In this document: piece by piece, positions 14,164 to 44,720 of the stretch
Layout of the letters: each line of letters starts with the position of its first letter
How positions within the stretch are numbered: the first letter of the stretch is position 1
Assembly (NCBI GenBank): GCA_002778465.1
Contig: PFBV01000003.1
Span: 151,736-215,735, forward strand
From: Candidatus Magasanikbacteria bacterium CG10_big_fil_rev_8_21_14_0_10_36_32
GTDB lineage: Bacteria; Patescibacteriota; Patescibacteriia; Magasanikbacterales; GWA2-37-8
Direction: 5' to 3'
Length of the DNA: 64,000 bases
Made by a program: the position numbers and the translations under genes
Notes under the pieces: generated by a model
Databases searched by the model: none
What the model was told of the DNA's origin: nothing
What the model saw: the letters and a program-made list of their open reading frames with translations, nothing else

Positions 14164-15165
14164 CTATTGGCTCACCCAATATTTTTGCAGAAGTTCGCTT
14201 CTGATTTTTTGCGTGTTTCCGTGTTTCAGCATCCCCAAATATGATTGTAATGTTTCCTCTTTTGGATTTTCTTTCACACTGGCAAACATCCTTCTTTTTG
14301 TCGCCCGCCGCAAAACGCGATGGTCGGGAAAATTAACCCAGCCGAGAAAATCCGCGCCGGAAGCGTAGGTTTGAATAAAAACTTTTTTATCGTGCAAAGA
14401 CAATTTCAGCCGTGTTTGTAAAAATTCGGCGATTCGTAAAATAATATTTTTAAGCCATTTTTTGTCCGCTGATAATATGGCAAAATCATCAGCGTAACGG
14501 ATATATTTTTTCGCGCGCAAATTATGTTTCATCCATTGGTCCAATTCATTCAAATAGACATTGGAAAATAATTGAGAAGTCAAATTACCCAGCGGTAAAC
14601 CGACACCGGTTTTGTTTTCGTCGGAATAACTCTCAATCACATTTTTTAACAGCCGCATAATATTTTTATTCGGGATATATTCATCTAAAATTTCCATCAA
14701 AATATTATGGTCAATGCTGGCGAAAAACTTGCGAATATCGCATTTTAATATCCAGCAAGTCCGGCTGTTATTGCGGCTTTCGCTTAAAGCCATCCGTTGA
14801 AACCGCTTGACCGCTTTGTGTGTGCCTTTATTCAGACGGCAAGAATACGAATCGGCGATGAATAACCGGTCAAAAAACGAATATAATATCCGATAAATGG
14901 CGTGATGCAACAAGCGATCGCGGACGCCGGCTTTGTGGATGTGGCGCGGCTTCGGGTCGCTGATATTAAACGCTTCGTAAGGCCCGTGCCGGTAATTTCC
15001 GCTTGCCAAATCTTCGTGAAGAGATATAATATTATCAGCTAGGTTGCGGCTGAATTCTAAAACATCAGGCTTGGATTTCTTGCCGACAACAAACTCGCCC
15101 CAGGCGAGAAATAAATTTTCAAATGAAATAATATCTTCAAAACTATGGTTCAGCTTGCTTTTCAT
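14164..15165 (-). CDS. DGR reverse transcriptase. The ORF track extends it to 15306, but the likely start is MKSKLNHSFEDIISFENLFLAWGEF, preceded by AGGA.
   Basis: RT domains with LPLGNLTSQLFSNVYLNELDQ (the DGR-specific I/LGxxxSQ motif that replaces QGxxxSP) and YADDFAILS. Size of about 333 aa is typical of DGR RTs. GC content is higher than the host background. Confidence 0.88.
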   Translation of the reverse strand: MKSKLNHSFEDIISFENLFLAWGEFVVGKKSKPDVLEFSRNLADNIISLHEDLASGNYRHGPYEAFNISDPKPRHIHKAGVRDRLLHHAIYRILYSFFDRLFIADSYSCRLNKGTHKAVKRFQRMALSESRNNSRTCWILKCDIRKFFASIDHNILMEILDEYIPNKNIMRLLKNVIESYSDENKTGVGLPLGNLTSQLFSNVYLNELDQWMKHNLRAKKYIRYADDFAILSADKKWLKNIILRIAEFLQTRLKLSLHDKKVFIQTYASGADFLGWVNFPDHRVLRRATKRRMFASVKENPKEETLQSYLGMLKHGNTQKIRSELLQKYWVSQ

Positions 15166-15185
15166 AATAATAATTCCTCTTATAA

Positions 15186-15195
15186 CCCCCCCCCC
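15186..15195. repeat. Homopolymeric C10 (G10 on the minus strand) tract between the divergent RT and avd-like starts
   Basis: tataaCCCCCCCCCCgacaa. It lies about 20 nt upstream of the RT start codon and about 8 nt upstream of the avd-like GTG start. Confidence 0.8.
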
Positions 15196-15203
15196 GACAA
15201 CCC

Positions 15204-15548
15204 GTGGTGATTGGCAAGGGTAAGGAAGCATACCAACTCTGGCTTGTTCTTCATAGAAACTTTCCCAAAACGGAACGTTTTGGTTTGGGTCAAAAAATTG
15301 ACACAATATTTTTAGAAATTTTAGAACTTGGTTATTCGGCCGGATATCTGCCGCCCGAACAGAAAACCGTCGCCTTGGGAAAAACCATCACTCGCTTGGA
15401 TATATTAAAATTTCTTTTTCAAATTGCATGGGAAAATAAACTGATTCCAAACAATAAATACATTATACTGTCTCAAAAACTGGAAGAAATCGGCCGCATG
15501 CTCGGCGGCTGGAAAAAGGGGCTTCTAAACAAAACTCCCGTAAATTAA
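15204..15548 (+). CDS. avd: Avd-like accessory protein (four-helix bundle, 23S rRNA intervening-sequence protein family), on the strand opposite to the RT and TR
   Basis: FPKTERFGLGQKID... and ...LSQKLEEIGRMLGGWKKGL match the 23S_rRNA_IVP/Avd family pattern (FPKxExxxL.sQlrRA ... eigkmL.gL). It occupies the TR-RT spacer. GTG start. Confidence 0.6.
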   Translation: MVIGKGKEAYQLWLVLHRNFPKTERFGLGQKIDTIFLEILELGYSAGYLPPEQKTVALGKTITRLDILKFLFQIAWENKLIPNNKYIILSQKLEEIGRMLGGWKKGLLNKTPVN

Positions 15549-15564
15549 ACGGGAGAAAACAACA

Positions 15565-15668
15565 GTCGCGAGAAAAGACACGGTTGCCAGCGTTCCACCT
15601 GTTCGGATTCTCAACCGAATTGGCGTTCACGTTCCAGCCGTCATCGTTCCGGTTTACGTTCACGGCGC
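15565..15668 (-). repeat. DGR template repeat (TR)
   Basis: A stretch of about 104 bp homologous to the 3' ends of both target genes. On the minus strand it reads ...AVNVNRNDDGWNVNANSVENPNRWNAGNRVFSR with many AAC codons. All 12 mismatches to VR1 fall at TR adenines. Confidence 0.85.
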
Positions 15669-15918: not shown

Positions 15919-15947
15919 TAAAAAAAGCCCCGCACAAGTGCGGGGCC
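15919..15947 (-). terminator. Intrinsic terminator of target gene 1, a conserved GC-rich hairpin also present downstream of target 2. It may also act as a DGR homing stem-loop/cruciform.
   Basis: Minus strand: GCCCCGCACTTGTGCGGGGC followed by TTTTTTT. A near-identical hairpin sits at 43985-44004. Confidence 0.65.
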
Positions 15948-16006: not shown

Positions 16007-16603
16007 TCAGCGAGAAAAGACACGGCTGCCAGCGCTCCACCTGTCCGGATCCTCAACCGAATTGGCGTGCACGTCCCAGCCGTCACCGTACCGGTGGACG
16101 TACACGGCGCGGAGCACTCCACTGACATCGCGAACATAGAAGATGTTCGTATAGCCGTTGGTGAGAAGTACGCCCGGCTCGCCGTTTGGCTGACAATTCA
16201 CCAGTTTGTAAACGCCGGCCATGGTGACTTCGGCCTTGGCTTCGCCGCCGAGGTCGTTGAGAATTTCGCAATCCAGAGAGACCTTGCTGAGGTCGTGGTG
16301 AGGACGCGAAACCGCCACATCCTTCGCTTCCTCGGTCTTGCCGTAGAACCAGGACTTAAAATTGTCGCCGATGTACAAGAACTTGATGGTGATGTTGGAC
16401 AGCTTGAAGTGGTCGGCGATGGCGAACTTGGTGACGGTGCCGACGATCAGGGCGGCGATCTGCTTGCGCAGGTCGGCGTCCTTGAGCACGCGCTCCATGT
16501 CGCTGTCATCCCCGCCGATGTCCAGCACGGCGTTGGCGATGGCCTTCATAAACCCGAAGGCCTTGCCCATCCCCTTCAGGAACTCACTCGTTTTCTTTGC
16601 CAT
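16007..16603 (-). CDS. DGR variable (target) protein 1, with the C-terminal VR spanning the last 33 codons (about 16008-16110)
   Basis: 198 aa. The C-terminus AVYVHRYGDGWDVHANSVEDPDRWSAGSRVFSR aligns to the TR with substitutions only at AAC/GAC adenines. The gene is GC-rich (about 55%), has an AAGGAG RBS, and is paralogous to the gene at 44066-44617. Confidence 0.85.
   Translation of the reverse strand: MAKKTSEFLKGMGKAFGFMKAIANAVLDIGGDDSDMERVLKDADLRKQIAALIVGTVTKFAIADHFKLSNITIKFLYIGDNFKSWFYGKTEEAKDVAVSRPHHDLSKVSLDCEILNDLGGEAKAEVTMAGVYKLVNCQPNGEPGVLLTNGYTNIFYVRDVSGVLRAVYVHRYGDGWDVHANSVEDPDRWSAGSRVFSR
16008..16110 (-). repeat. DGR variable repeat VR1
   Basis: The nucleotide alignment to the TR shows 12 differences, all at TR adenine positions on the coding strand. 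Confidence 0.85.
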
Positions 16604-16699
16604 GACACTTTCTCCTTGTTTTTGGTCTGCCTCTTGCTAACGCGACATGCGCCAGCCTATGGCTTGCCATTTTTAAAGAACATTACATTATAAGCGAAG

Positions 16700-16844
16700 C
16701 TTAAAATTACGGCGTTGCTCATATAATGAAAAATAAATTTTCCATTTATTCACAACTTGCCATTATAAGTGAAAATCTTGAAATGGCGGCGTTGTTCATA
16801 TATAGAAAACAAGGTTTTTCATCTATTCACAACTTGCCATTATA
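16700..16844. repeat. Tandem repeat, 2 copies of about 77 bp (about 80% identical), in the 5' leader of target gene 1
   Basis: Units cttaaaattacggcgttgctcatataatgaaaaataaattttccatttattcacaacttgccattat and cttgaaatggcggcgttgttcatatatagaaaacaaggtttttcatctattcacaacttgccattat. Each contains the near-palindrome AATGAAAAAT..ATTTTCCATT. Confidence 0.8.
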
Positions 16845-44065: not shown

Positions 44066-44617
44066 TCAGCAAGAGAATACGCGGAGGTCGGCGCACCACC
44101 TGCTCGGAAACCCAACCGAATGGGCGCGCACGTCCCAGCCGCCATCGAGCCGGTTCACATACACAGCGCGAAGCACCCTGTTGACATCGAGAACATAGAA
44201 AATGTTCGCATAGCCGTTGGTGAGAAGTACGCCCGCCTCGCCATTTGGCTGGATCTTCAAGAGCTCATAGATGCCGGACATAGTAACTTCGACCTTAGCT
44301 TTGCCGCCGAGGTCATCAATAATTTCGCAATCCAACGAAGCCGCCTTACAGAGGTCGTGGTGAGGATGCGGAACAACCAAATCCTTTACTTCTTCAGTCT
44401 TGCTGTAAAACCACAACTTGAAGTTGTCGCCGATATAACTGAACTTTACTGCGGCGTTGGACAGCGTGAAATTGTCGGCGACAACGAACTTATTGACAGC
44501 GGTTTCCAAAAATCCATCCGGATTCTTGAGGAACTTCTGAAAATTGGCGGACGTAACTCGTCCGGCCTCCACCTGCCTAAAAAATTCCTTCATCTGTTTG
44601 AAACTGGGTTGTAACAT
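44066..44617 (-). CDS. DGR variable (target) protein 2, a remote paralog, with VR2 at about 44067-44168. Likely start MLQPSFKQ (AGGAG RBS); the ORF track extends it to 44635.
   Basis: The C-terminal 130 aa are homologous to target 1. The final 33 codons (AVYVNRLDGGWDVRAHSVGFPSRWCADLRVFSC) align to the TR with about 20 substitutions at TR adenines plus about 8 non-adenine changes. GC-rich. Confidence 0.8.
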   Translation of the reverse strand: MLQPSFKQMKEFFRQVEAGRVTSANFQKFLKNPDGFLETAVNKFVVADNFTLSNAAVKFSYIGDNFKLWFYSKTEEVKDLVVPHPHHDLCKAASLDCEIIDDLGGKAKVEVTMSGIYELLKIQPNGEAGVLLTNGYANIFYVLDVNRVLRAVYVNRLDGGWDVRAHSVGFPSRWCADLRVFSC

Positions 44618-44720
44618 TCTATCATCTCCTTGCATCCGCAGTATTTAAACAATACATCCGACATCATTGCCAAACATACTGCCAATAAACCTGACGGACA
44701 CGGTAAAAAGAACCGATGTT

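Follow-up and report, generated by a model that had tools for sequence, protein, structure and literature searches.

The 64,000-nt stretch of Candidatus Magasanikbacteria DNA analysed here (the window) carries a run of ten C residues at the junction of two divergent genes of a diversity-generating retroelement (DGR), those for the reverse transcriptase (RT) and for the accessory protein Avd. The question raised by the locus is whether this tract is a switch of DGR diversification and, if so, which gene it controls and by which route. The preliminary description saw in it a homopolymer set exactly between two start codons, a slipped-strand element that could toggle RT and/or Avd expression by changing the length of a promoter/RBS spacer. 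The reading favoured here, to which a probability of about 0.6 is given, is that the tract is a coding-frame contingency switch located within avd, and gates DGR diversification. Patescibacteria (CPR) host more DGRs than almost any other group and are not culturable. Untargeted or continuous mutagenic retrohoming should be costly.

The C10 tract and the surrounding DGR

The tract was found precisely where it had been placed, in the plus-strand context ...TTATAA CCCCCCCCCC GACAACCC GTGGTG.... The distances given earlier were also confirmed, 20 nt separating the tract from the RT ATG (minus strand, 15165-15163) and 8 nt from the avd-like GTG at 15204, located 3' of the tract on the plus strand. 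C10 is the sole G/C homopolymer longer than 6 nt in the 64 kb, and C runs of at least 10 nt are expected by chance 0.005 (iid) to 0.014 (first-order Markov) times in the window; homopolymers of this kind are indeed rare here. The GC content of the window is 35.5%, and the figure of about 30% given for the background was too low. The features of the locus are as follows.

15186-15195, plus strand: C10 tract (G10 on the RT strand), read from the sequence; proposed to encode Pro-Pro-Pro in avd; also part of the RT 5' leader
14164-15165, minus strand: DGR reverse transcriptase, 333 aa (RVT_1, E=8e-23)
15186-15548, plus strand: body of avd, whose own frame is open between the tract and TAA 15546-15548 (bAvd PF22296, E=5.6e-15)
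15568-15668, minus strand: template repeat (TR), 89% identical to the variable repeat
15535-15555, minus strand: GC-rich hairpin and U run directly after the TR, overlapping the avd stop; looks like the intrinsic terminator of the TR transcript
16010-16110, minus strand: variable repeat (VR), C-terminal in the target ORF 16007-16603
15926-15947, minus strand: GC-rich hairpin and T run downstream of the VR, candidate IMH-flanking inverted repeat or terminator
15003-15030, plus strand: sigma-70-like site TTGCCA-16-TATAAT (11/12 match), within the coding sequence of RT, some 115 nt 5' of the ATG at 15145

The locus is a bona fide, complete DGR, made up by RT, Avd and a TR/VR pair with adenine-only mismatches, in the order target/VR - TR - reversed avd - RT. 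TR RNA is in the RT sense, because all mismatches in the TR/VR core sit at TR adenines of the minus strand. The target ORF (16007-16603, minus strand) encodes a protein of 198 aa with no Pfam match, and the VR ends 1 nt before its stop codon. RT homologues number in the thousands, from Patescibacteria, and the closest likewise reside in loci with TR/VR pairs. Avd homologues are 260, PF22296 being detected in every one. ORF finders call avd from GTG 15204, as a protein of 114 aa (15204-15548, plus strand); database look-ups with the exact 114-aa Avd and with P0121 matched no record. A target paralogue (44069-44644) was evaluated as carrier of a second VR; this sequence is only 75% identical to the TR, has non-A mismatches and a diverged 3' end, and is probably not a current target.

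A hairpin followed by a T run is found after the TR in nearly all of 28 related loci checked. Because this conserved intrinsic terminator directly follows the TR, a single transcript spanning TR through RT, with the G run in the spacer of the DGR RNA, is unlikely. The TTGCCA-16-TATAAT site is a weak candidate for the avd promoter; its -10 box is seemingly conserved in relatives, a conservation inseparable from the coding constraints of RT.

Conservation of the repeat across Patescibacteria

Searches with RT through 185,579 species genomes and through JGI metagenomes yielded 160 loci, with RT identity of 56-71%, from many Patescibacteria lineages, among them Moran-, Magasanik-, Harrison-, Azam-, Staskawicz-, Nealson-, Niyogi-, Kerfeld-, Nomura-, Yanofsky-, Jorgensen-, Zambryski- and Terrybacteria. 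About 140 of these related Patescibacteria DGR loci have a G6-G12 run (mode 9-10) at the avd/RT junction, distributed as G6 (2), G7 (3), G8 (19), G9 (46), G10 (49), G11 (16) and G12 (5). G/C runs of at least 7 nt are 149 in 870 kb (165 loci), nearly all on the RT strand and 15-30 nt upstream of RT; the distance of the tract from the RT ATG varies among loci, from 15 to 28 nt. avd is divergent from RT in every locus, and the order VR-TR-(reversed avd)-repeat-RT, along with A-specific mismatches, is found in 111 of 114 loci. (GT)n or (GA)n repeats replace the G run at the junction in nine loci, and about ten loci are without a long repeat. The nine replacements indicate that a simple repeat, not a particular sequence, is therefore conserved. 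In relatives with RTs 89% and 78% identical to that of the window, a G9 run sits at the matching place, and the avd side is no longer alignable as DNA.

Whichever of the three repeat types is present, its G residues are invariably on the sense strand of RT, and the tract is always found 15-30 nt upstream of the RT start. The function might accordingly belong to the RT strand, the G_n, (GU)n or (GA)n sequence acting, in the RT leader or as DNA, as a structure or protein site (G-quadruplex-like, non-B, anti-SD-binding decoy). The element would then control RT translation, block read-through transcription or recruit RT/Avd, and changes in length would be tolerated noise; a conserved terminator of its own ends the TR transcript, and RT therefore has to be controlled separately. 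Such a role is very doubtful. The shared strand may simply be inherited, if the dinucleotide repeats arose from a G run, and at least six independent loci have intact DGRs in the absence of any repeat. No second G run was found, nor any conserved pairing partner, C-rich partners of the G run being inseparable from the coding constraints of Avd. The antisense ATG, the open frame and the frame logic described in the next sections are, moreover, left unaccounted for.

Length variation among near-identical loci

Tract lengths were taken from consensus assemblies of short-read metagenomes, not from reads. Exact-protein look-ups retrieved three further contigs of the window strain, two with G10 and one (L001, ERZ27293400) with G9. 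The strain carries C10 in three assemblies and C9 in the fourth, the C9/C10 change being the sole difference between L001 and the window over 7 kb. Members differing in tract length were observed in eight of 19 groups of near-identical loci: in seven of the 18 groups defined by identical 300-nt flanks, and in one more detected by a further look-up (G10 vs. G11, with 0 mismatches in 3990 nt). A 1-nt change in the tract is all that distinguishes L001 from the window, L037 from L151 and L042 from L160 (6-7 kb in these three pairs), as well as L167 from L168, over spans of 4-7 kb overall; L024/L130 and L105/L108 differ by a tract change plus one substitution. Lengths differ by 2 nt in one pair (G7 in L152, G9 in L155), and the copy number of the dinucleotide repeat differs between L120 and L125. 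None of the A/T runs of at least 8 nt present in these alignments varies. As judged from the alignments, the tract is hypermutable.

These results agree with the view of the preliminary description that the tract is a slipped-strand, length-variable element tied to the DGR machinery. The tract is not invariant, at the level of the assembly consensus, in the window strain as in the eight variable groups, and the comparison of orthologous loci, which had been proposed as a check, reveals a repeat that is clade-wide, in which other units may substitute for G, and which differs in length even between near-identical loci.

All data are short-read metagenome consensus assemblies, and G runs are error-prone on some Illumina chemistries. 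The tract could hence be real, and the length differences be sequencing or assembly errors, out-of-frame states being artefacts. This is scarcely credible. The same lengths recur in independent assemblies (C10 in three records, G9 in three), changes are not confined to single bases (L152 vs. L155) nor to homopolymers (L120 vs. L125), and the proportion of loci found out of frame, about 70%, is far above any consensus error rate.

The start of avd

On the avd strand, a conserved ATG precedes the tract by about 40 nt. In the window this corresponds to the following feature.

15145-15147, plus strand: proposed true avd start ATG, reverse complement of the RT codon His7 (CAT)

The putative avd start region and RT codons 1-7 (15145-15165) overlap head to head, and the codon usage of RT is peculiar in this segment. 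His7 is encoded by CAT in 69 of 70 loci, vs. 57% CAT elsewhere in RT (Fisher p=1e-15). Among Leu residues in RT codons 1-9, TTG is used in 56 of 69 cases and TTA or CTA in 4 of 69, vs. 32% elsewhere (p=5e-7); among Ser residues, TCA is used in 0 of 44, vs. 17% elsewhere. The complements of TTA and CTA are stop codons, and with the bias in codons 1-9 the antisense frame stays open. No stop interrupts the ATG frame before the tract in 68 of 68 loci, the two other frames being open in 7 and 3 of 68; with looser criteria, the ATG frame is open in 94 of 98 loci.

Loci devoid of the repeat, or featuring a short G5-G6 run, are informative in this respect. In all the seven independent loci of this type (L010, L032/147/148, L061, L121, L133/135, L149 and the G6 locus L036/153) avd is read in frame from the ATG, giving Avd proteins of 127-138 aa which begin with M.Q.NFH; the chance of finding seven out of seven in frame is (1/3)^7, about 5e-4. 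Similarly, 24 of the 120 best Avd database homologues start with M.Q.NFH, some of them lacking the Pro run, as M[ST]QLNFHNQPSVI.KEKEAY. A peptide predicted from this start is MVQLAFHNNNSSYNPPPR, the homologue pattern being M.QLNFH...PPP....

Further evidence comes from the region next to the tract. In 37 of 112 loci the stretch from the preceding in-frame stop to the conserved N-terminus of Avd contains no ATG, GTG or TTG, and translation must therefore begin at or before the tract. At the position aligned to the called avd start, many loci have TTG or GTG, and many others have ordinary codons for Leu, Val or Ile (CTT, CTG, TTA, GTT, ATA). The Pro run is followed in the avd frame by an Arg codon in many relatives (CGG, AGG or AGA; CGA in the window), and is preceded by in-frame Phe/Tyr-Lys/Asn codons, corresponding to the conserved AT-rich motif (yTTAAAAG / TTATAAG) which abuts the tract on the RT side. 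Taken from these comparisons, avd probably starts at ATG 15145-15147 and includes the tract, a simple repeat lying within the ORF downstream of the putative start. The earlier placement exactly between divergent start codons holds for the GTG chosen by ORF finders, and is probably wrong for the gene, the start indicated by the relatives being upstream of the tract.

Just after the tract, about half of the loci have a TTG or GTG codon (GTG 15204 in the window) from which a shorter Avd could start regardless of the tract; the ATG and the codon bias might conceivably belong to a distinct small ORF upstream. The hypothesis that downstream TTG or GTG codons compensate in loci with out-of-frame tracts was discarded, as no association was found (Fisher p=0.5); 33 of 71 out-of-frame loci have no start codon downstream of the tract. 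The 'MPAVI...' database proteins checked (P0162, P0192) are GTG/TTG calls, not ATG.

The same data bear on the spacer mechanism put forward earlier, according to which the tract is non-coding, sits between the divergent starts of RT and avd (GTG 15204), and by its length tunes the promoter/RBS geometry of one or both genes. The tract does separate the RT ATG from the first GTG/TTG in frame with avd, both in the window and in about half of its relatives; it is flanked on the RT side by the AT-rich motif mentioned above, and is truly polymorphic in length. Yet no -35/-10 pair brackets it at a workable spacing on either strand (consensus scan, flank logos, TAnnnT histograms), its distance from the RT ATG is variable, and SD sites are found in only 9 of 37 long ORFs of this genome. 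A GTG/TTG start is not general, given the 37 of 112 loci with no canonical start in the avd frame, and the position of the called start is a normal Leu or Val codon in many loci; the adjoining motif is accounted for by codons of the upstream ORF. With the tract placed inside the avd frame, and neither the conservation of the CAT/ATG nor the seven in-frame loci accounted for, a spacer role is improbable. Two elements which might have been taken in its support were rejected. Peaks in the TAnnnT histograms trace back to codons conserved in Avd (KKYI) and in RT (NI, EDII), and are not promoter evidence. Neither the tract nor the neighbouring GAGG is a plausible Shine-Dalgarno sequence, the distance of the motif being fixed relative to the tract and not to the RT ATG, and SD sites being rare in the genome.

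Frame states of avd

Read from the ATG, the 5' end of avd in the window has the following structure.

15145-15210, plus strand: avd 5' segment in the C10 state (OFF), which reads MVQLAFHNNNSSYNPPPDNPW and ends at the stop TGA 15208-15210

Translation from the ATG spans 21 codons with C10 and 25 codons with C9. With C11 or C8 it reads MVQLAFHNNNSSYNPPPRQPVVIGKGKEAYQLW... and proceeds to full-length Avd of 134 or 133 aa, respectively. All the four assemblies of the window strain (C10 in three, C9 in one) are OFF, because C10 and C9 are both out of frame, and no ON variant was seen among them.

Both states were encountered within other strains. L130 (G8) encodes an Avd of 134 aa, its same-strain partners L024, L128 and L129 (G9) an ORF of 22 codons. 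L151 (G11) encodes an Avd of 127 aa, identical to the database protein P0139, and differs from L037 (G10) in the tract alone, the remaining sequence being identical over 6984 nt. By translation, the length of the tract decides between a full-length and a truncated product in the window (C8 or C11 vs. C9 or C10) as in the L130/L024 and L151/L037 pairs.

In-frame loci are 21 of the 73 bearing a tract, the other offsets accounting for 34 and 18; under looser criteria (n=98) offsets 0, 1 and 2 are found in 27, 43 and 28 loci. The in-frame share, about 27-29%, is indistinguishable from one third (21/73, p=0.46), and about 70% of the assembled tract-bearing loci are OFF. Selection for the in-frame state was accordingly dismissed; since the share is that of a random third, there is no sign of ON selection in the assembled consensus. 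Dinucleotide-repeat loci also fall in both classes, L120, L083 and L162 being in frame, L125, L066, L102, L051 and L079 not. The body of avd is intact in all loci, whatever their frame state, and is therefore still under selection.

A proposed frame switch in avd and an alternative

The proposed mechanism builds on the anatomy of the locus, the clade-wide conservation of the repeat, the length polymorphism within strains and the frame logic, all established at the sequence level. Translation of avd would start at ATG 15145, run through the antisense of the RT start and leader, cross Pro-Pro-Pro and enter the conserved four-helix body of Avd. The length of the tract would set the reading frame, full-length Avd being made in one of three phases, and OFF frames would yield no functional Avd. 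Replication slippage would alter the tract by one base at high rate, so that ON and OFF cells would always be present in the population. Through Avd, the tract would decide whether the target gene undergoes mutagenic retrohoming, and DGR activity would follow the frame state. In the Bordetella phage, bRT has no RT activity without Avd (PMC6182149), and this is why a switch in avd would be expected to gate DGR retrohoming as a whole.

Of the earlier proposal that tract length toggles RT and/or Avd, the idea of a length-variable switch is supported, and gains much strength from the comparison of loci. No evidence was found for toggling of RT; since the tract most likely lies inside the avd reading frame, the predicted effect is an Avd frameshift, not a change in spacing. 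If this holds true, a gate that is both heritable and reversible is built into most CPR DGRs, in the form of a hypermutable repeat which switches off the helper of a hypermutation system.

The near-uniform distribution of offsets (0:27, 1:43, 2:28) is also what is expected if the genomic frame hardly matters. In this case the tract could be a conserved recoding site, the avd frame being restored by RNA polymerase slippage on the C/G run, or by a ribosome shift on CCC-C or C-CCC-CCC during a Pro-Pro-Pro stall. In every cell a small and constant share of Avd would be full-length, the tract serving as an attenuator which keeps Avd at a low level. In all OFF loci the body of avd is intact, and offset 1, which may be corrected by a +1 shift at CCC-C, is the commonest class. 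Polymerase slippage occurs on tracts of 8 nt or longer, and most loci have tracts of at least 8 nt. The offset is not constant, however, as a dedicated ribosomal site would need, and the (AC)n and (TC)n replacements are not classical ribosomal slippery sites. Changes in length do occur at the DNA level within strains, and repeat-less loci manage without recoding. Recoding is thus a tentative alternative, on balance unlikely, both as a route to the avd frame and as a device to keep Avd low. Were it true, DGR activity in Patescibacteria would depend on the state of transcription or translation, as set by CTP/GTP pools, EF-P or tRNA-Pro modification, and not on genotype alone.

Comparison with known systems

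Frameshift contingency genes controlled by homopolymers include pilC and lgt in Neisseria, poly-G genes in Campylobacter jejuni and poly-C/CT genes in Helicobacter pylori. The avd tract resembles these loci in several respects: a G/C run of 8-12 nt is located soon after the start, one-base slippage shifts the frame, near-clones differ at the tract only, and dinucleotide repeats can fill the same role. Three features are new. The gene that would be gated is the accessory subunit of a targeted hypermutation machine, a helper of the system and not a surface or modification gene. The repeat occupies a single orthologous position in many class-level lineages of a radiation of phylum rank, unlike classical contingency tracts, which are usually strain- or species-specific; a contingency repeat conserved in this way would be a rare example. 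Finally, unlike in contingency loci, the proposed 5' end of avd, with the tract in it, and the divergent RT gene overlap head to head.

Phase variation may also result from repeats in promoter spacers, as (TA)n in Haemophilus influenzae hifA/hifB, poly-G in Neisseria porA and poly-C in Neisseria opc. The window shares with this type a length-variable simple repeat between divergently oriented genes; it differs in that no -35/-10 elements bracket the repeat, and in that a coding-frame switch is what the frame evidence favours. Programmed slippage or recoding at homopolymers is known for Thermus dnaX, Shigella mxiE/spa13 and IS elements, and +1 shifts occur at CCC-C proline codons. A long homopolymer within the ORF, a downstream part in another frame, and a Pro-Pro-Pro stall, which would favour shifting, are points of similarity. 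Unlike programmed sites, which have a fixed frame relation and consist mostly of A/T runs, the avd tracts occur in all three frame relations and vary in length at the DNA level.

Among DGRs, the architecture B3, TR-(avd)-RT, was described in a CPR set (Wu et al. 2018, PMC5758913), and clade 2 was found to be restricted to Patescibacteria (Roux et al. 2021, PMC8144416). The DGR of the window matches both, having the same gene order, a reversed avd, a C-terminal VR and A-to-N mismatches, and RT homologues all from Patescibacteria. The two surveys make no mention of a repeat at the avd/RT junction, of an upstream avd start or of out-of-frame avd genes. In full-text literature searches, the scope of which did not extend to Paul et al. 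2017, no report was found of a repeat, homopolymer, frameshift or phase variation in DGRs or avd. The DGR of the Bordetella phage BPP-1 (mtd-avd-TR-brt) likewise comprises RT, Avd and TR/VR; unlike BPP-1, whose genes all share one strand and which has no known repeat switch, the CPR clade has a reversed avd which carries the repeat, and a TR with its own terminator.

Annotation and VR differences

The annotation of the clade is to be corrected accordingly: avd is often uncalled, or called from a spurious GTG or TTG, and the real start would overlap RT head to head. If the frame switch exists, the ON/OFF state of a DGR may be read from genome or read data, and related to VR diversity in existing metagenomes. 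The pattern of VR differences seen so far lends anecdotal support to a link between state and activity, in a sample far too small for a test. The VR of the window strain is identical in the assemblies which cover it (L001 and L003). No VR differences were found in the OFF-only groups window/L001, L042/L160, L161/L163 and L139/L142, nor in the mixed pair L037/L151. VR mismatches between near-identical assemblies are 27 in L100/L101 and 10 in L036/L153, both ON lineages, and 17 in L128/L129, which belong to a lineage with both states.

Probable termination of the TR RNA

In the window, the TR is directly followed by a GC-rich hairpin and a U run (15535-15555, minus strand). A GC-rich hairpin with a U run lies likewise directly after the TR in nearly all of the 28 related loci checked (contigs in the L003-L158 range), with a distance of only about 25 nt to the convergent avd gene at its 3' end, and this conservation suggests that the TR RNA is a separate transcript with its own termination. 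The arrangement differs from that of the Bordetella phage BPP-1, where the RNA spans avd, TR, spacer and brt, and the hairpin may correspond in function to the spacer region of BPP-1.

Gene calls and translation starts

With ten G residues in the tract, the RT frame remains open for 47 codons further upstream, across the tract (window 15306-15165, minus strand). As a consequence, some gene callers report an RT of 380 aa, starting from the TTG at 15306 (database protein P0001), and one of 333 aa with nine G. The 380-aa version is an annotation artefact produced by the tract. According to a public gene call, the plus strand opposite the DGR target carries a 208-aa ORF at window 16067-16693 (1474-2100 in L001, a contig of the same strain). 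This ORF, located where the sequence is locally rich in GC, is a mis-annotation, and the real DGR target is the 198-aa ORF carrying the VR on the minus strand.

Shine-Dalgarno-like motifs precede only 9 of the 37 window ORFs of at least 200 aa, most starts being preceded by A/T-rich sequence. Apparently, the organism relies little on Shine-Dalgarno-led initiation.

Target gene, its leader and a paralogue

Two features lie upstream of the target gene:

16697-16767 and 16774-16844, 71-nt direct repeats, 82% identical to each other
16867-16839, minus strand, promoter-like site, a perfect TTGACA-17-TATAAT with a TG extension, adjoining the repeats

With the promoter-like site at a distance of about 230 nt from the target ATG, on its upstream side, the target leader would be unusually long, and would contain the repeats.

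A target paralogue of 192 aa resides at 44069-44644 (minus strand), and exhibits about 79% DNA identity to the DGR target over 518 nt. Its VR-like C-terminal segment shares only 75% identity with the TR, features non-adenine mismatches, and has a diverged 3' end. The paralogue may once have served as a second DGR target that has since decayed or been retired.

Variation in related contigs

In contig L048, about 2.7 kb separate the DGR tract from a second G10 run upstream of it (294-303), and an odd CCCCGGGGCCCCCCCCCCGG stretch opens contig L080 (9-18), at the contig end; both could be part of a second DGR, or contig-end artefacts. L024 and L128, otherwise near-identical contigs, differ by two clusters of substitutions outside the annotated VR (positions 149-268 and 923-1055), which could point to further regions of the target-side flank that are diversified or recombining.
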